Source: Escherichia coli
Lineage (GTDB): Bacteria > Pseudomonadota > Gammaproteobacteria > Enterobacterales > Enterobacteriaceae
Assembly (NCBI RefSeq): GCF_002854065.1
Contig: NZ_CP024153.1
Strand: one strand, 5' to 3'
Length of the DNA stretch: 64,000 nt
Notes under the pieces: model-generated
Database searches by the model: none
What the model was told of the DNA's origin: nothing
The model's input: only the letters and a program-made list of their open reading frames with translations
Position numbers and translations under genes: made by a program
In this document: one piece after another, positions 16,427 to 26,942 of the stretch
Position numbering within the stretch: the stretch's first letter is position 1
Layout of the letters: each line of letters starts with the position of its first letter

Positions 16427-17678
16427 ATGGCGACGGACACCCCACGGATTCCAGAACAAGGCGTGGCCACTCTGCCTGATGAGGCTTGGGAGCGTGCGCG
16501 CCGTCGTGCGGAGATCATCAGTCCGTTGGCGCAGTCGGAGACGGTCGGGCACGAAGCGGCCGATATGGCGGCTCAGGCGCTGGGCTTGTCTCGGCGCCAG
16601 GTATACGTTCTGATCCGGCGTGCCCGGCAAGGCAGCGGCCTCGTGACGGATCTGGTGCCCGGCCAGTCCGGTGGAGGTAAAGGTAAGGGGCGCTTGCCGG
16701 AACCGGTCGAGCGCGTCATCCACGAGCTACTGCAAAAGCGGTTCCTGACCAAGCAGAAGCGCAGCCTAGCGGCCTTTCACCGCGAAGTCACTCAGGTGTG
16801 CAAGGCTCAAAAACTGCGAGTGCCGGCGCGCAATACCGTGGCCTTACGGATCGCTAGCCTTGACCCGCGCAAGGTCATCCGCCGGCGGGAAGGCCAGGAT
16901 GCCGCTCGTGACCTACAAGGTGTGGGCGGCGAGCCTCCTGCCGTGACCGCGCCGCTGGAGCAGGTGCAGATAGACCATACGGTCATCGACCTGATCGTGG
17001 TCGATGACCGCGACCGGCAACCTATTGGCCGCCCGTACCTGACCCTCGCCATCGACGTGTTCACCCGCTGCGTGCTCGGCATGGTCGTCACGCTGGAAGC
17101 GCCGTCTGCCGTTTCGGTTGGCCTGTGCCTCGTGCATGTCGCCTGCGACAAGCGCCCTTGGCTGGAAGGACTGAACGTGGAAATGGATTGGCAGATGAGC
17201 GGCAAGCCCTTGCTGCTCTACCTAGACAACGCGGCCGAGTTCAAGAGCGAGGCCCTGCGCCGGGGTTGCGAGCAGCATGGCATCCGGCTGGACTATCGCC
17301 CGCTGGGACAGCCGCACTATGGCGGCATCGTGGAACGGATCATCGGCACGGCGATGCAGATGATTCACGACGAACTGCCGGGAACGACCTTCTCCAACCC
17401 TGACCAGCGCGGCGACTACGATTCCGAAAACAAGGCCGCCCTGACGCTGCGCGAGCTAGAGCGCTGGCTCACATTGGCGGTCGGCACCTACCACGGTTCG
17501 GTGCACAACGGCCTGCTCCAACCGCCGGCCGCGCGCTGGGCCGAGGCCGTGGCGCGTGTCGGCGTACCGGCCGTCGTCACACGCGCTACTTCGTTCCTGG
17601 TCGATTTTCTGCCGATCCTCCGGCGCACGCTGACCCGCACCGGCTTTGTCATCGACCACATCCACTACTACGCCGATG
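16427..17678 (+). pseudogene. tniA: tniA (Tn402 transposase) truncated at 3' end by IS26
   Basis: MATDTPRIPEQGVATLPDEAWERARRRAEII...; ends ...HIHYYAD at the IS26 left IR. Confidence 0.9.
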
Positions 17679-18498
17679 GGCACTGTTGCAAATAGTCGGT
17701 GGTGATAAACTTATCATCCCCTTTTGCTGATGGAGCTGCACATGAACCCATTCAAAGGCCGGCATTTTCAGCGTGACATCATTCTGTGGGCCGTACGCTG
17801 GTACTGCAAATACGGCATCAGTTACCGTGAGCTGCAGGAGATGCTGGCTGAACGCGGAGTGAATGTCGATCACTCCACGATTTACCGCTGGGTTCAGCGT
17901 TATGCGCCTGAAATGGAAAAACGGCTGCGCTGGTACTGGCGTAACCCTTCCGATCTTTGCCCGTGGCACATGGATGAAACCTACGTGAAGGTCAATGGCC
18001 GCTGGGCGTATCTGTACCGGGCCGTCGACAGCCGGGGCCGCACTGTCGATTTTTATCTCTCCTCCCGTCGTAACAGCAAAGCTGCATACCGGTTTCTGGG
18101 TAAAATCCTCAACAACGTGAAGAAGTGGCAGATCCCGCGATTCATCAACACGGATAAAGCGCCCGCCTATGGTCGCGCGCTTGCTCTGCTCAAACGCGAA
18201 GGCCGGTGCCCGTCTGACGTTGAACACCGACAGATTAAGTACCGGAACAACGTGATTGAATGCGATCATGGCAAACTGAAACGGATAATCGGCGCCACGC
18301 TGGGATTTAAATCCATGAAGACGGCTTACGCCACCATCAAAGGTATTGAGGTGATGCGTGCACTACGCAAAGGCCAGGCCTCAGCATTTTATTATGGTGA
18401 TCCCCTGGGCGAAATGCGCCTGGTAAGCAGAGTTTTTGAAATGTAAGGCCTTTGAATAAGACAAAAGGCTGCCTCATCGCTAACTTTGCAACAGTGCC
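17679..18498 (+). mobile_element. IS26 copy A
   Basis: 820 bp, 14-bp IRs ggcactgttgcaaa; tnp26 17742-18446 (234 aa, G at residue 184). Confidence 0.95.
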
Positions 18499-18758
18499 CA
18501 TTTATGAATGTTCCTGTTATGGCTTATGTTCAAGAAAGCATTGCCCCTGAAATGATGGGCAAGGTGTTTTCCCTTTTGATGACCGCCATGACTCTTTCTA
18601 TGCCGATAGGCTTACTTGTTGCAGGTCCGGTTGTTGAGGTTATAGGTGTTAATACATGGTTTTTCTGGTCTGGTGTTGCGTTGATAGTAAACGCTGTTCT
18701 CTGCCGCATTCTGACACGACGCTATGACAAAGTAACAATGAAACCGCAAGTGGACTGA
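18499..18758 (+). pseudogene. MFS efflux gene 3' fragment (about 260 bp), consistent with the mef(B) remnant seen in sul3 contexts
   Basis: C-terminal about 86 codons of an MFS transporter in frame from the IS26 boundary to a stop. Confidence 0.55.
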
Positions 18759-18903
18759 AAAAAGGACCGGGTTGATGATAATTTGTAGTGGTGAGCTTCT
18801 GGGAGTACAAAACAAAGTGCTCAAAATTGTCGGGCTCATGGCGTTTAACGGTATTAATTTCGCTTATAATAATCTTTCTATAATAGCCTAAAGGAGAATA
18901 TCT

Positions 18904-19767
18904 ATGATACCTAATAGCGAAAATAAAAGAGTATGGTTTATTACCGGAGCAAGCAAGGGGCTTGGCTATGCTTTTACATGCGCCGCCTTGAAAGCCGGGG
19001 ATAAAGTTGTTGCAGTTGCAAGGACTATCGATAATTTGGCGAAGCTAGAAGAAACATATCAAGAGAGCTTACTGCCATTAAACCTCGATGTTACAGATAG
19101 GGAGGCTGTTTTTTCTACGGTTGAAACAGCAGTTAAACATTTCGGTAGGCTTGATATTGTTGTTAATAATGCGGGTATCATGACTATGGGTATGATTGAA
19201 GAACTAAACGAATCCGATGCTCGGAAACTAATGGACACAAACTTTTTTGGAGCTCTTTGGGTTTGTCAGGCAGTGATGCCCTATTTGAGGTCGCAGCGTT
19301 CTGGACATATCATACAGATTACAAGCATTGGCGCTATTATCTCGGGTCCGATGTCTGGTATTTACAGTGCAAGTAAATTTGCGCTGGAAGGAATGAGTGA
19401 AGCCTTAGCAAAAGAAGCGGAACATTTCGGAGTGAAACTCACTATGGTGGAACCAGGAGGATATTGGACAGATTTATACACTTCGATGAGTTACAGCAAT
19501 CCATTAGATTCATACGGTACACTGCGCGATGAGCTGGCGAAACAGTATTCCGAAGATTCGGTCGATAGTGATCCTTCCTTGGCAGCGGAAGCCCTTATGA
19601 AATTAGTAGCCAGCAATAATCCGCCTTTGAGGCTTATCCTTGGCAGCATGGTATACGATTTGGCGATGGATACCTTAAAAGCACGGATGGCTACCTGGGA
19701 AGAATGGGAAGCTGTTAGCCGTGCATCAGAAAAGGCTATTCCTGCACCGGAGAGATATGGAGTATAA
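18904..19767 (+). CDS. Short-chain dehydrogenase/reductase (SDR) family protein
   Basis: TGASKGLGYA glycine-rich NAD(P)-binding motif, NNAG, S...YSASK catalytic motif; low GC. Confidence 0.75.
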   Translation: MIPNSENKRVWFITGASKGLGYAFTCAALKAGDKVVAVARTIDNLAKLEETYQESLLPLNLDVTDREAVFSTVETAVKHFGRLDIVVNNAGIMTMGMIEELNESDARKLMDTNFFGALWVCQAVMPYLRSQRSGHIIQITSIGAIISGPMSGIYSASKFALEGMSEALAKEAEHFGVKLTMVEPGGYWTDLYTSMSYSNPLDSYGTLRDELAKQYSEDSVDSDPSLAAEALMKLVASNNPPLRLILGSMVYDLAMDTLKARMATWEEWEAVSRASEKAIPAPERYGV

Positions 19768-19804
19768 TACCAAACATGGTTTTTGAGGCAAGGACGAAAC
19801 TATC

Positions 19805-20050
19805 ATGAAAATTGAAATTATGGAATATAACCCGGATTGGACAAAGAATTTTGAAGAAGAGAAAATAAAATTGCTCCATTTTTTCGGTTCTCATGCCGTA
19901 GCCATTGAACATATCGGAAGCACGGCGATACCCAATCAACGGGCGAAACCGGTTATAGATATATTTATTGGCGTTTCGCCTTTTGCTGAACTACCTTTTA
20001 TCAGCGCATTTTTAATGCAAAGGAGTATCACCACACTCCGACAGATATGA
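19805..20050 (+). CDS. GrpB-like protein fragment
   Basis: 81-aa ORF ...HIGSTAIPNQRAKPVIDI...; shorter than typical GrpB, probably truncated. Confidence 0.4.
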   Translation: MKIEIMEYNPDWTKNFEEEKIKLLHFFGSHAVAIEHIGSTAIPNQRAKPVIDIFIGVSPFAELPFISAFLMQRSITTLRQI

Positions 20051-20518
20051 CAGGCAGATATTTGTTTGCAAAATATACAAATGAAGTTTGGACCCATAAT
20101 CTTCTTGCTTTGGTGTAGGTATAATACCCAAAAACGAAGTTTATGCGGAACAGGATAACACCTCGAAATCGGAGTTTATATGGCTTCGTGGGGGAGTTAT
20201 GTGTTTGAGCTTTGTCGCATTAACGCGAATCAGGGGTTGACGGCAGAAATAGACTGGAATTACACTTCTTGGAGTCGGCGTTGCCGGAAAATTCTGATTG
20301 GATTAGTTGTTCGGGGTGCGAAAACAGTCGTAGTTCGGGGAAAAAACCGAATTTTGACCCAAAACCGCGAAAAACTCGAAATGACAGTTCCTATCAGTTT
20401 TCATAATGAATTAAAACAAAAAAATTAGGCTGCAAAGATAGGGAAAATGTGTCAATTTGCGTAAGTGATAATTAGTCAATTAAGATAAATGCTACTTTTG
20501 TAATCAAAGCAAAATGAT

Positions 20519-21310
20519 ATGAGCAAGATTTTTGGAATCGTAAATATAACCACCGATAGTTTTTCCGATGGAGGACTTTATTTAGATACAGATAAGGCAA
20601 TTGAGCATGCTCTGCATTTGGTTGAAGATGGAGCAGATGTGATTGATTTGGGAGCCGCTTCCAGTAATCCTGATACAACTGAAGTGGGCGTTGTGGAAGA
20701 AATCAAAAGACTCAAACCTGTCATTAAGGCTTTAAAAGAAAAAGGCATTTCTATTTCTGTTGATACATTTAAACCTGAGGTTCAGAGTTTTTGCATAGAA
20801 CAAAAGGTTGATTTTATTAATGATATTCAAGGTTTTCCTTATCCTGAGATTTATTCAGGCTTGGCAAAGTCAGATTGCAAACTTGTGTTGATGCACTCCG
20901 TTCAGCGAATTGGTGCAGCTACTAAAGTTGAAACGAATCCGGAAGAGGTTTTTACTTCCATGATGGAATTTTTTAAAGAAAGAATTGCTGCTTTAGTTGA
21001 GGCTGGTGTAAAGCGTGAACGAATTATTCTTGATCCGGGTATGGGCTTCTTTTTAGGCTCTAATCCAGAAACATCTATTCTTGTTTTGAAGCGTTTCCCT
21101 GAAATTCAAGAAGCTTTTAATTTGCAAGTAATGATTGCAGTGTCACGGAAATCATTCTTAGGTAAAATAACTGGAACCGATGTGAAATCTCGTTTAGCAC
21201 CAACTCTTGCAGCAGAAATGTATGCATACAAAAAAGGTGCAGATTATCTCCGCACCCATGATGTTAAGTCTTTATCAGATGCCTTGAAAATATCCAAAGC
21301 CCTAGGTTAG
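20519..21310 (+). CDS. sul3: Sul3 sulfonamide-resistant dihydropteroate synthase
   Basis: 263 aa MSKIFGIVNITTDSFSDGGLYLDTDKAIEHALHLVEDGADVIDLG... matches Sul3 as recalled. Confidence 0.9.
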   Translation: MSKIFGIVNITTDSFSDGGLYLDTDKAIEHALHLVEDGADVIDLGAASSNPDTTEVGVVEEIKRLKPVIKALKEKGISISVDTFKPEVQSFCIEQKVDFINDIQGFPYPEIYSGLAKSDCKLVLMHSVQRIGAATKVETNPEEVFTSMMEFFKERIAALVEAGVKRERIILDPGMGFFLGSNPETSILVLKRFPEIQEAFNLQVMIAVSRKSFLGKITGTDVKSRLAPTLAAEMYAYKKGADYLRTHDVKSLSDALKISKALG

Positions 21311-21599
21311 TTTTATTTTTTTAGCTTTCTAAATGAATATGCTATACTTGCTCTGAAGTTGTGTTGGCGTACTTGACTTAGGTCTGGATCTTTCGAACTG
21401 TTACTAAGAGGGTAATCATAGCCAAACATAAACTGGAAATGTCCTAATTCTAAACCTGTTCCAATACCTACACTATAATCAAGAGGACTTAAACTTCCAT
21501 CACTTCCAAAAGGTTTTGTGTACTTCTCTTGAGTTTTCGTAGCTAAATAGTAGTGTTTGTTGGTAAATCCAAATAATCCAATATTCAATCTTGCGACCG

Positions 21600-22243
21600 G
21601 GAAAGTCCTCTTGAAAGTACCACAAGTTCGCGGGATGGAGTTTTATCCCAGCTGCATCGAGAAAGGCATGCGCAGTGAGCGTGCTCTCAAGCTCGCCATC
21701 GCCGAAATGTATGTCAAAGGAGTAAGTACCCGCAGGGTCTCGGATATCGTCGAAATTCTTTGTGGCACCGAAGTCAGCTCGTCCCAGGTCAGCAGGCTGG
21801 CAAAGGAGCTCGATGAAGAGATTACGTCTTGGAAGGCGCAGCCTGTCGGACAGATTCAATACTTGGTACTTGATGCGACCTATGAATCGGTTCGCGTCGG
21901 TTCCCATGTGGTCAAGCAGGCGCTTCTAGTGGCTATTGGCGTTGATTACAGCGGGAATCGGCATATTCTTGACGCCGAAGTCGCGAACAGTGAGGCAGAG
22001 GTAAACTGGCGTTCCTTTCTCGAGGGTCTCGTACGACGAGGGATGCACGGCCTGCGAATGATCACCAGTGATGACCACTCAGGACTGCGCGCGGCAATCG
22101 ATGCTGTCTTCCCTGGAATTCTGTGGCAACGCTGCCAGTTTCATCTGCAGCAGAATGCCCACTCCTACGTCACGAAAAAAGATGAGATCCCGCTGATAGC
22201 CGCTGATATTCGGAAGGTGTTCAATCGGAATATGTCAAGATAG
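21600..22243 (+). pseudogene. IS256-family transposase internal fragment (IS440-like, as found next to sul3)
   Basis: ...MYVKGVSTRRVSDIVEILCGTEVSSSQVSRL...DATYESVR... mutator-type Tnp core; both termini missing. Confidence 0.7.
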
Positions 22244-22645
22244 TTTATGCCAGATTTTTGAGAGGTTTGCATCAAGCAGCCTTCGAAAGAGGACGGCATG
22301 ACATTGAGACCGGCAAGGCGTCGTAGATACGCACTTTCCCAGTACGCCACCGTAAGGGGTTTTTCTCTTTGGCAGCAAGAATGGTTTGGTTTCTTTTTTC
22401 CTCGGCGCCGTAGGCGTCCGACTAACAATTTATTGTACGGAATCTATCCGTGATTTTGGGGTGGATCGGGTCGTCATAGTCTGGTGTGAGACTATGTACC
22501 GGAAGCTTGAAAATCCCGGATAAAGCCCGCTTTGGCAATGTTTTTGTACCGCATAGATTATGCAAAAATGCGGAAAGTTTCTTCATAGTCAGCAATGGGA
22601 CTTGCTCGTGTATATACTGTTTATATATACATGTGGAGGTGACTC

Positions 22646-23617
22646 ATGCGCAAGCCTCATTCGCCGTTTTTGGCAAGCATCTATGAGCAGATGTTGATGC
22701 TGCGTTACGCGATGGCAACCGTTGAAGCCTATCTGCACTGGATCAAGGCATTTATCCGTTTTTCCCGGATGAAGCATCCGGTCGAGCTGGGTGAGGCGGA
22801 GGTTCAGCAATTTTTGTCCTATCTGGTCACCGAGCGCCATGTGGCTGTCAAGACTCAGGCCCAGGCGTTGAATGCGCTGGTCTTCTTGTATCGCACTGTC
22901 TTGTTACGGCCTCTGCAGCTCGAGATGAAATTTACGCGCAGCCAGCGCCCTCCCAAACTGCCAACTGTTTTGACGCAAAGTGAAGTCCGAGCCTTGTTGC
23001 TGGCTATGCCAGTTCATCTTCGTCTCTTGGCGCAACTGATGTATGGCAGCGGACTCAGGCTGATGGAGGTGATGCGCCTGTGCGTGCAGGATATCGACTT
23101 CAACTACCTCTGCCTGATGGTCTGGAATGGCAAAGGGGGCAAGCACAGGCGTGTGACTCTGGCCTCGGAACTCATTCCGGCCCTGCGGGAGCAAATTGCC
23201 TACGTCCAGCGCTTTTATATGACGGACTGCTTAAACGACGCGTATGCCGGGGTGGCCTTGCCGACGGCATTGGCGCGCAAGTATCCGGCTGCCAGCAAAG
23301 AGCTGGGTTGGCACTACCTGTTTCCGGCATCCCATCTGAGTCGCGATCCTGTCGATGGGGCCTTGCGTCGACATCATCTGGATCCAACTACCCTGCAAAA
23401 AGCGGTTCGAGCCACGGCGCGTCAGCTACAGCTGGGAAAACCGGTCACCTGTCATACCTTGCGCCATTCCTTTGCCACCCATTTGCTGGCGCGGGGGGCG
23501 GATATTCGAACCGTGCAGGAGCAACTGGGCCATTCTGATGTTCGAACCACACAAATTTATACCCATGTGCTGCAAAACGGCGCCAATGGGGTACGTAGCC
23601 CTTTGTCTGATCTGTAA
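22646..23617 (+). CDS. Integron-integrase-like tyrosine recombinase, not class 1
   Basis: 323 aa; YLHWIKAFIRF, integron-specific insert (ALARKYP...W.YLFP...DP...RRHH), HTLRHSFATHLL, DIRTVQEQLGHSDVRTTQIYTHV; RBS ggaggtgactc before ATG; clearly divergent from IntI1 copies at 42087 and 44137. Confidence 0.75.
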   Translation: MRKPHSPFLASIYEQMLMLRYAMATVEAYLHWIKAFIRFSRMKHPVELGEAEVQQFLSYLVTERHVAVKTQAQALNALVFLYRTVLLRPLQLEMKFTRSQRPPKLPTVLTQSEVRALLLAMPVHLRLLAQLMYGSGLRLMEVMRLCVQDIDFNYLCLMVWNGKGGKHRRVTLASELIPALREQIAYVQRFYMTDCLNDAYAGVALPTALARKYPAASKELGWHYLFPASHLSRDPVDGALRRHHLDPTTLQKAVRATARQLQLGKPVTCHTLRHSFATHLLARGADIRTVQEQLGHSDVRTTQIYTHVLQNGANGVRSPLSDL

Positions 23618-23845
23618 TGGTTGGGGGGCGGGACGCTCGGTTTTTCAGAACGAGTGGCCTGACGCAGGCACGCTACCGCCCTTAGGTTACAGCTCCTAGA
23701 GGCTGACATCCGTTTCAGGTGGTGGCTTGTTACCCGGGCCATTTTCATCCTGATGGCCTGTTCTTTTCGTCAAACTATGCTACGGATTTCAGTTTCATAT
23801 GGAAATAAATAATCGACGGGATTTGCAAAAATGTGCGATAGACAG

Positions 23846-25041
<1,196 letters not shown>

Positions 25042-26076
25042 CTAAATCGTCGTGCCACTTACGCCAGTCTTTATTGAGCTTATCTTTTTTACCGCCTTCT
25101 TCGGCTTTTACAGGTGCCTGGTCGACGTTCATCACCACTTCAACGGCATCAAAGCCGAGTTTGTCACCCAACAAGTAGTACATCTGCACGCAGGCATCGC
25201 GGTCGTACACCACTACCATGCCTTTCATTGTCGCCCTGGAGGTGCGAGAGCAGGCTATACAGCAGGCGATCGAGGCCGCGCTAGCGCACCAGCCAGTTGA
25301 TCCCCCCCGCCCCAAGAGCTGGCGCGTGCTGCGCCCGCTCCGGCCACGCCTGAACCGCCCCGCCTTCGGCGGAGCCGTTAGGGCGCGGCACCAAATGGGC
25401 TGAAATGCGGCGTTCGGGTATCAAAACGAACGAACCAGGAGAGGCGGATTTTAGCCACTAAAATCCGCCAGAAAACGTCGCGAACTTTCAGGGCTTTTGG
25501 GGGGCATTTGGCAGGGTTTCGCATGCGAAAATCGACGTTTCGTGGTGATCTGGGGAGGAAGAGGGTTTTGCGCATGCGCAAAAGTGCCTATTTAACATAT
25601 TGCCTGTATGACGCAGTAGGAATATGCAAAAAATGCATATACGAAACCGCATGAGGATTTTTATGGTGATGTTGTCTAAATTGGACGCTGATGCCGCTAG
25701 CAATATACGAGATCAGCATGACTACGAACGAGCGCTGGCGTTAATTGATGAACTGTTCGACTGGTATCGCTCGTTGGGAGGATCGTTCGCCGGAATTCGA
25801 CGAATTCAACAAAATGGTGCGAAACATAGAGACCCAGGAGAAGTCACCATGAAAATTTTGGGTGGGTTCTGCATCTAGGGTTGTAGATGGTGCCATTGTG
25901 TTGTTCCGCGAGCCCCTTGTTCCCAGAACTCAAAAAATGGGAGCGAGCGAATATCAGAGACTCGGGCGCAGCGGATGTCACCCTCTATCACAATTGGTAA
26001 TCCAAAAAGTGTTTTTCCTCGCCAAACTATTCAATCCACTCCTTCGTTTCGCCCTGCTATGGCAATCCCTATGGGT

Positions 26077-26274
26077 TCAAATGACGATCCCGTTCTCGAT
26101 CTGTCCGACCAGGTCCTCGACCTCCGTCACCGTAACATCAGGATCTGCCGGTCGTCTATTGCCCAACGAGCGCGCGGGTAGATCTAGCCAGAGCCTCGCT
26201 TTTTGGGCATTCCCATCAAACAGCCGTGTCGCAAAAAATAGTTTTTGAAAATAGGTTTTTGAGTTTCCCACCAT
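26077..26274 (-). CDS. Small ORF with DUF2384-like (Xre/MbcA/ParS antitoxin-type) C-terminus
   Basis: ...ARLWLDLPARSLGNRRPADPDVTVTEVEDLVGQIENGIVI; AGGAG RBS 5 nt before the ATG at 26274. Confidence 0.3.
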   Translation of the reverse strand: MVGNSKTYFQKLFFATRLFDGNAQKARLWLDLPARSLGNRRPADPDVTVTEVEDLVGQIENGIVI

Positions 26275-26335
26275 CAACTCCTGTAAAATGACGTGATACT
26301 GGGTCGTAAATGATGATAGCTCTAACGGAGGTCGT

Positions 26336-26743
26336 ATGTCCCAGCTCAAGGACCGTCGCACCTCGATGCGGGTAACAGCCGAAAACATTGTTCTGAACAG
26401 TGGTGAATGGTTCACGCAGAATGAACTGAACAGCATCGCCACCTGTCAGCAATTCGAACTCGATGAGTGGGAGCTGTCAGGGAAAATATTTTCCATCCAT
26501 CATGACGGCACAGATTACTATCCGACATATGCGCTGGATTCGAAAGATTATCGACCGCTAGATGCAATGGCCAAAGTTATTTCCATTTTTTCTGGACACA
26601 AAAACGGTTGGGGGATGGCATTTTGGTTCATGTCGGCTAATGGTTGTCTGGGTGCCGTAACACCGAAATCTATTATTGCTACTGAACCAGAACGAGTGTT
26701 GGCCGCAGCCCGAGATGAAATTGAAGGCGTGGCCCATGGCTAA
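26336..26743 (+). CDS. Hypothetical protein, 135 aa, divergent from the 26077-26274 ORF
   Basis: GGAGG RBS; C-terminus ...AFWFMSANGCLGAVTPKSIIATEPERVLAAARDEIEGV also loosely DUF2384-like. Confidence 0.4.
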   Translation: MSQLKDRRTSMRVTAENIVLNSGEWFTQNELNSIATCQQFELDEWELSGKIFSIHHDGTDYYPTYALDSKDYRPLDAMAKVISIFSGHKNGWGMAFWFMSANGCLGAVTPKSIIATEPERVLAAARDEIEGVAHG

Positions 26744-26942
26744 CTGTGGCTGTAGGCTTTCGCATAACCAACAGTTGTTGGCACCAGTGTTCACTGCAAA
26801 CATTCGCTCGGTCCGCCCAGGTCTTCTGGTGGACAGCTCTATTTGGTAACAGGCTTTTGACCCAACAGTCCGGACACGTTTTCCAAACTCATCATCCAGT
26901 CGGCAATATCTAGACTCCTCAATTGCAGGATGTTTTCAATTT

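Follow-up and report, generated by a model that had tools for sequence, protein, structure and literature searches.

The window analysed here, a stretch of 64,000 nucleotides (64 kb) from a contig of Escherichia coli, numbered from its first letter, carries at 22646-23617 a complete gene for an integron integrase (intI), preceded by its recombination site (attI) and followed by a short non-coding tail. On one side, this platform adjoins the 3' segment characteristic of sul3-associated class 1 integrons, and on the other side it is bounded by an IS5-like element. The similarity of the integrase to environmental integrons of Aeromonadaceae, together with the structure of the junction at attI, points to a hybrid formed by site-specific recombination. 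Loci used for comparison are denoted by L numbers, and the features are collected in Table 1.

An integron integrase outside classes 1, 2 and 4

The product of the open reading frame (ORF) 22646-23617 is a genuine, full-length integron integrase. The protein reached 446.7 bits with TIGR02249 of NCBIfam (cutoff 265), with the profile covered from 1 to 315 of its 315 positions, it contains the Pfam domains PF13495 and PF00589, and its top match in PDB is VchIntIA (2a3v; E 6e-116), with which 317 residues are aligned without a gap. The catalytic set R138, K163, H270, R273, H296 and Y305 is equivalent to R146, K171, H277, R280, H303 and Y312 of IntI1. The criteria of Roy, Partridge and Hall for an IntI require the R, K, H-x-x-R, H and Y residues and a length of >280 aa (PMC7784347), and both the six catalytic residues and the length are found in the 323-aa protein. 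The alignment with VchIntIA is also ungapped through residues 183-240, corresponding to the IntI-specific insert, whereas XerA, a XerC-like protein and XerD each align in two pieces that omit these residues (57 residues in the query against 18 in XerA, with about 39 extra relative to XerA/XerD). The identity of a Xer recombinase or a phage integrase was ruled out by the profile scores and by this insert. An earlier note, made from the letters of the window alone, had described an ORF with the hallmarks of integron integrases, a strong ribosome-binding site and a clear divergence from IntI1, leaving room for a grouping with XerC/D or phage integrases. The profile score, the catalytic residues and the insert bear out the first of these claims, the motif GGAGG lies where the ribosome-binding site was proposed, and a neighbour-joining tree places the protein within the IntI family, in its Aeromonadaceae group.

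Regarding the class, the divergence from IntI1 is evident both from the identity of 46% and from the score with the IntI1 equivalog NF011946 (294.9 bits, under the cutoff of 435). Class 1 is defined by an IntI at least 98% identical to WP_000845048 (PMC7784347), a threshold far above the value of 46%. Membership of class 2, which implies near-identity to the IntI2 of Tn7, was ruled out by an identity of 45.9% to the annotated intI2 loci on plasmids, and membership of class 4, or Vibrio cholerae type, which implies near-identity to VchIntIA, by an identity of 58.4% and a separate Aeromonadaceae clade in the tree; these assignments derive from the comparison with IntI1, IntI2 and VchIntIA. Among the 5,000 best PLSDB matches, no plasmid-borne IntI at 60-95% identity was found.

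The closest relative is encoded by a metagenome-assembled genome of Aeromonadaceae from a wastewater inlet (L016), with 92.6% protein identity, followed by a sewage metagenome contig (L003; 92.3%), Aeromonas veronii (78.6%), Plesiomonas (73%) and Tolumonas (65%). In the tree, the protein falls inside the Aeromonadaceae/Plesiomonas/Tolumonas clade, within the Vibrio-type gammaproteobacterial IntIs. At the DNA level, the identity to the relatives with 92-93% protein identity is only 77%, with a ratio of nonsynonymous to synonymous substitution rates (dN/dS) of 0.02. This low ratio at 77% DNA identity indicates that intI was under strong purifying selection until recently, and the DNA identity itself indicates that the true donor species has not yet been sequenced. 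The relatives are real integrons with cassette arrays and attC sites, as in the A. veronii locus (L002), where divergent small genes lie between attC sites with R'' ACTTAAC and R' GTTAAAT; these sites were read by eye, repeat finding on the arrays of the relatives being uninformative. Four metagenome contigs (L096-L099) encode a 99% variant of the protein (P0001). Taken on sequence comparison, the integrase is thus best described as a member of an unnumbered Aeromonadaceae-type class from an uncultured lineage.

In the public annotation the gene is an "integron integrase" (PGAP), and it has been drawn on maps, without further analysis, as "IntI4" in Tn7124 or as "delta-intI4-IS440 tnpA-tet(M)" (PMC11539080, PMC9396132). 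The tet(M) transposon Tn7124 and the delta-intI4 modules evidently contain the same gene in the same IS440-linked position, although it is named inconsistently in these papers (IntI4 or IntI3), with no class assignment and no analysis of attI or of the junction (PMC11539080, PMC9396132). Tn6539 and pTS14 were considered as matching elements and rejected, their structures being different. No published description of the integrase class, or of its attI or attC junction, was found in the literature. VchIntIA, the IntI4 of the V. cholerae chromosomal integron (2a3v), shares the family, the architecture, the insert and the catalytic residues, although it differs in its attI and the copy in the window is located on plasmids without an array; the label "intI4" is wrong at the class level, because the identity to VchIntIA is only 58.4%. 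The nearest published system is the chromosomal class 4-like integron of Aeromonas sp. genomospecies paramedia 3925, which carries eight attC sites and has captured a class 1-type aadA1 cassette (PMC10609294). It belongs to the Aeromonas lineage, is related to class 4 and has a lexA box, and its capture of aadA1 shows a comparable exchange with the clinical cassettes; a cold-shock-domain cassette is also present in both this integron and A. veronii L002. The likeness is taken from the published description, and the paramedia 3925 integron differs in being chromosomal and in having an attC array (PMC10609294).

The attI site and the junction with the sul3 segment

The sequence TAACAATTTATTGTACGG (22423-22440) is kept upstream of intI in five related loci, and the homology to each partner ends there; in six different contexts, the homology next to attI breaks at GTT. 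The stretch near 22410-22450, which the earlier note had seen as a vague resemblance to attI/attC cores, is accordingly a real attI, conserved in five loci and with the homology breaking at its crossover. To locate the left boundary, plasmids were searched with 21300-22700 of the window as the query. Of the hundreds of classical sul3 plasmids, most match 21300-22427 at 100% and then diverge. The 182 bp located in classical sul3 integrons immediately after the qacL attC, past its R' end, show 100% identity to pSC138 (L015, up to 8128) and to most of the 783 plasmids covering at least 80% of the query, and the whole 4.7 kb of 17672-22425 is colinear with pSC138 at 99.6%. Beyond the match, pSC138 continues with the 60-bp attC of qacL (qacH), and then with qacL-aadA1-cmlA1-aadA2-psp-estX-attI1-intI1. 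Position 22244 was rejected as the junction, since the sul3 plasmids match continuously past it, and the true junction is 22425/22426. The foreign DNA is then 22426-23843, about 1.4 kb.

The crossover itself can be followed in a four-way alignment read in the direction of the cassette array, which is the minus strand of the window:
window: ...CCGTACAATAAATT GTTAGTCGGACGCC...
pSC138: ...GGCTTAATTCAGGT GTTAGTCGGACGCC...
L003: ...CCGGACAATAAATT GTTAGGTCAACATG...
A. veronii: ...CCGTATAATAAATT GTTAAGTGCATAAG...
Here the window is plainly chimeric: the attI half equals L003 and L002, and the other half equals the sequence beyond the R' core of the qacL attC. Both parents have TGTTAG at the point of the switch, with the canonical G|TT crossover inside it, and the hairpin expected of an attC is formed by the qacL site (z = -3.9). 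With only 6 bp shared at the switch, homologous recombination is not credible. The junction appears to be the signature of IntI-catalysed attI × attC recombination, for which the support is good, and the locus would be an attI × attC recombinant, that is, an empty hybrid integron with the sul3 segment on the cassette side. As the junction was made at the crossover of the qacL attC, the adjacency of intI and sul3 is not incidental.

The same attI is also found in other company. Contigs L096-L099 match 22424-23843 of the window at 99.5% and continue with other sequence at the same AAC|AATTT point: in L096 and L097 it begins with GTTGCACTCGCC... (GTTGCAC...), ahead of the gene for an IS91-family (Y2) transposase; in L098 it is a diverged homologue of the L096/L097 sequence; and in L099 it begins with GTTATATCTC... 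(GTTATAT...), ahead of the start of an ordinary cassette-like ORF. A near-identical platform with no fewer than three distinct first-cassette junctions is as expected of an attI that is putatively active. In L099, the match extends to 23884 of the window, with the IS5-like element at the same place; the left junction of this element is thus shared by both, indicating that the IS5-flanked platform existed with another cassette.

The transposase of the IS91 family (Y2/Zn-finger) is the first gene after attI in L096 (445-1575, minus strand) and L097 (47-1165, minus strand), and its unit is preceded in both by the perfect hairpin CCGAGGC-A-GGCCTCGG. The unit may be a cassette with a transposase gene, or else an element with attI as its target.

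Table 1. Features of the intI platform and of its surroundings (positions in the window unless a locus is named).
Feature	Position	Strand	Remarks
sul3-type 3' segment	17672-22425		IS26, truncated mef(B), SDR gene, GrpB gene, sul3, IS440 remnant, 182 bp
sul3	20519-21310		within the sul3-type 3' segment
IS256-family (IS440/IS406) transposase remnant ORF	21557-22243	+	constant part of the sul3 3' segment
182-bp stretch, in classical sul3 integrons directly next to the qacL (qacH) attC at its R' end	22244-22425	-	begins TTAGTCGGACGCC...
GTT crossover triplet	22424-22426	-	recombination point between 22426 and 22425
attI core	22426-22445	-	reads ...CCGTACAATAAATTG, last base is the G of GTT; conserved in the window, L016, L003, L002 and L017
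LexA-box-like palindrome CTGT-N8-ACAT	22617-22632		just 5' of the intI ribosome-binding site; from the alignment of six orthologous upstream regions
Shine-Dalgarno GGAGG	22635-22639	+	6 nt 5' of the intI ATG; read from the sequence
intI ORF (integron integrase)	22646-23617	+	323 aa, ATG start
Non-coding platform tail	23618-23843		homology to the 99.5% metagenome copies reaches 23843
JUMPstart-like element with exact ops 12-mer GGCGGTAGCGTG	23669-23705	-	52 nt past the intI stop codon, in antisense orientation
IS5-like element, right boundary	23846-25041	+	transposase split into ORFs 23995-24390 and 24403-24894
JUMPstart/ops element of locus L029	L029 1344-1381		directly after the intI stop, antisense to intI

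Proposed formation of the hybrid and present activity

An integron integrase joins the folded bottom strand of attC with a double-stranded attI, with the cut between G and TT. It is quite probable that the platform (intI plus attI) of an uncultured Aeromonadaceae-like integron has become, through recombination of its attI with the qacL attC, the empty hybrid now present on enterobacterial resistance plasmids; the identity of the integrase, the conservation of attI and the position of the breakpoint at the canonical crossover in both parents are direct observations on which this proposal builds. The recombination partner of the platform's attI would have been the attC of qacL/qacH, the last cassette in a sul3-type class 1 integron, and the DNA following qacL (the 182 bp, the IS440 remnant, sul3, the truncated mef(B) and IS26) would thereby have been attached to the new attI, while the class 1 cassettes, attI1 and intI1 would have been replaced by the new platform. 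The cognate IntI presumably acted as the catalyst, the simplest routes being a deletion between integrons in the same orientation or a cointegrate, and IS5 and IS26 may then have spread the product. If active, IntI could integrate cassettes at the attI of the platform and release those held in the neighbouring class 1 arrays. On the whole, this mechanism of formation seems well supported by the sequence.

Several points weigh against this reading. The locus contains no cassette, the cassette side being occupied by the sul3 3' segment, and a crude R''/R' hairpin scan of 22000-23950 detected no complete attC, a weak scan that recovered the attC of aadA1 and one of A. veronii and missed that of qacL. 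A consensus scan of 22200-23900 gave no convincing promoter, with no excess over shuffled sequences. The direction of the event is not readable from the junction, and either the classical form or the hybrid could be the ancestor. IntI1 uses foreign attI sites at low frequency, and the nature of the acting enzyme is therefore inferred. Finally, residue 146, which is Arg in 117 of 117 homologues including IntI1, is Cys in the plasmid allele (R146C; codon 146, 23081-23083, TGC against CGC in the 99.5% metagenome allele), and three of the three or four nucleotide differences between these alleles are nonsynonymous, S99G and T268I being the changes on the side of the metagenome allele; this pattern fits relaxed selection or inactivation.

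These last observations bear mainly on whether the locus is now an inert relic, with an integrase inactivated by R146C after its capture and retained through linkage to sul3, tet(M) and IS26. This is a serious possibility, somewhat short of an even chance. The replacement at an invariant position, the nonsynonymous excess between two near-identical alleles, the lack of cassettes at the locus and the truncated intI copies of some plasmids (H64, H122) are all in its favour, and active integrases carry a fitness cost. Nevertheless, the ORF is full-length and intact, retains all the catalytic residues, a set that does not include R146, and is identical in the 12 of 12 plasmid and chromosomal loci checked. 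The relic explanation moreover concerns the present activity only and is compatible with the proposed attI × attC origin, as the recombination that formed the junction may have preceded R146C. The present activity of the plasmid allele is, from its sequence, a matter of roughly even odds.

An opposite history appears improbable. In that case, the sul3 segment would have been located first at an Aeromonad-type attI, and recombination of the qacL attC with that attI would have given rise to the classical integrons, the platform being the donor of their unusual sul3 3' region. The junction is symmetrical, and so compatible with either direction, and the platform is also found without sul3, carrying other cassettes. 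On the other hand, the classical form is about eight times commoner, both in complete E. coli genomes and in plasmids; the hybrids examined share one intI allele and the IS26/mef(B) truncation of pSC138, which looks like a recent single origin; and L099 represents an IS5-flanked platform with an ordinary cassette. The search of plasmids for an ancestral form through the IS26/mef(B) boundary was swamped by IS26 matches.

Still less probable is an origin of the junction through IntI1, or through illegitimate recombination by chance, with the new attI as a secondary site; the junction would then be uninformative on whether the new IntI is active. The cell must also have contained a class 1 integron, and the low-frequency action of IntI1 at non-cognate sites would make this feasible; however, at least three further first-cassette sequences are found at the same attI point in contexts where no class 1 integron is seen, and TGTTAG is too short for homologous recombination, with the switch located at the canonical crossover in both parents. 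The reading of the earlier note, an independent integron that lost its array through the IS256-family and IS5-like elements on its flanks, is hardly credible: both elements do flank the locus, and the IS5-like one stands as the right boundary, but the IS256 remnant has no such role on the left, since it forms with the next 182 bp an ordinary, constant part of the sul3 3' segment, and the break is located at the attI crossover and not at the end of an insertion sequence.

With regard to known hybrids, the proposed attI × qacL-attC recombinant resembles the class 2/class 1 integrons, in which an integrase and its attI from one class have become linked, through recombination at cassette sites, to class 1 cassettes or to a class 1 3' segment; it differs in that the partner is an unnumbered environmental class and that no cassette is left. 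From the sul3-associated class 1 integrons (pSC138; estX-psp-aadA2-cmlA1-aadA1-qacL-IS440-sul3-mef(B)-IS26), with which the 4.7-kb segment is shared at 99.6-100%, the window differs in having the new attI-intI instead of intI1, attI1 and all the cassettes.

Regulatory elements, spread and significance

Upstream of intI, the palindrome resembling a LexA box is present at the same position in all six orthologous loci, with a perfect CTGT-N8-ACAG in A. veronii and one mismatch in the CAG arm in the window, and intI is probably SOS-controlled through this putative box. In the Aeromonas class 4-like integron, a lexA box is located by PintI, yet mitomycin gave no induction (PMC10609294). With respect to the cassette promoter (Pc), the consensus promoter/terminator scan of 22200-23900 gave nothing on the minus strand.

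Downstream of intI, the JUMPstart-like element scored 34.1 bits with Rfam RF01707 (gathering cutoff 35; E 2.4e-5). Orthologous elements occur in L003 (2448-2484) and L016 (1227-1263), with 31 bits each, and the one behind intI in Zobellella iuensis is above the threshold (46.4 bits). An ops core is located 10-55 nt past the intI stop, always on the antisense strand, in 11 of 87 IntI loci, Grimontia and Enterovibrio among them, against about 0.6 expected by chance. The convergent neighbour genes of the ops loci are mutually unrelated, indicating that the element travels with the integron. No paper linking RfaH or ops to integrons was found. The position of ops points to RfaH-dependent transcription that comes into the integron on the side behind intI, and it is possible, as a hypothesis, that RfaH-loaded, termination-resistant antisense transcription runs through intI into the cassettes. 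A further reading, in which the platform would be a sixth mobile one in E. coli, Salmonella and Klebsiella, still recombining clinical cassettes and with an inward ops/JUMPstart element that drives RfaH-dependent transcription of the cassettes and damps the integrase, is rather doubtful.

No 4-bp target duplication surrounds the IS5-like element (ACAG on its left, CTAA on its right), and in L097 and L098 a truncated IS5-like fragment, 92% identical, is located about 75 bp further out. To the right of the IS5-like element, at 25042-26900, lie a gene for an Xre/MbcA/ParS-type antitoxin-like protein and a 135-aa ORF (26336-26743), followed by a truncated Tn3-family transposase gene and a tet(A)-tetR(A) region, and from 25042 onward no similarity to the loci of the relatives was detected by blastn. 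Elsewhere in the window, two IntI1 remnants, both cut by IS26, are present at 42087-42785 (plus strand, 227 codons) and 43610-44137 (minus strand, about 170 codons), and both lack H277, R280 and Y312. Since both are truncated, the 323-aa protein is the sole complete integron integrase in the 64 kb, which include two class 1 arrays without an intact IntI1, one on the aac(6')-Ib-cr-blaOXA-1 side and the other on the dfrA12-orfF-aadA2 side.

The integrase occurs on 95 PLSDB plasmids, and the hybrid junction was found in 50 of 5,426 complete E. coli genomes (about 1%), against about 420 with the classical junction. The exact protein is present in 2,416 index blocks, mostly in the arrangement IS26-tet(M)-...-IS440 remnant-intI-IS5, and some copies are chromosomal, in contigs of 4.7-5 Mb. 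In loci L004-L014, the IS440 remnant and intI are joined leftward to IS26-tet(M) instead of sul3, with the switch at 21385 of the window. The tet(M) contexts share 21385-22700 with the window at 100%, indicating either descent from the sul3 hybrid or recombination with it.

Classes 1 to 3 are the targets of resistance surveillance and integron typing, and a platform of another class with its own attI, joined to sul3 or tet(M) and spread by IS26, usually escapes notice or receives the wrong label "intI4". With it, a second type of gene-capture platform is carried on multidrug-resistance plasmids. If active, the 323-aa integrase would be an enzyme still able to move the cassettes of the class 1 arrays of the window. 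If functional, the ops element behind intI would represent a new layer of integron regulation, and RfaH/ops-dependent transcription, if true, would be a previously undescribed route of cassette expression and integrase damping. The junction would document a natural case of recombination between an environmental integron and a clinical cassette site, the kind of environmental-clinical exchange that is thought to feed new genes into the resistance pool.

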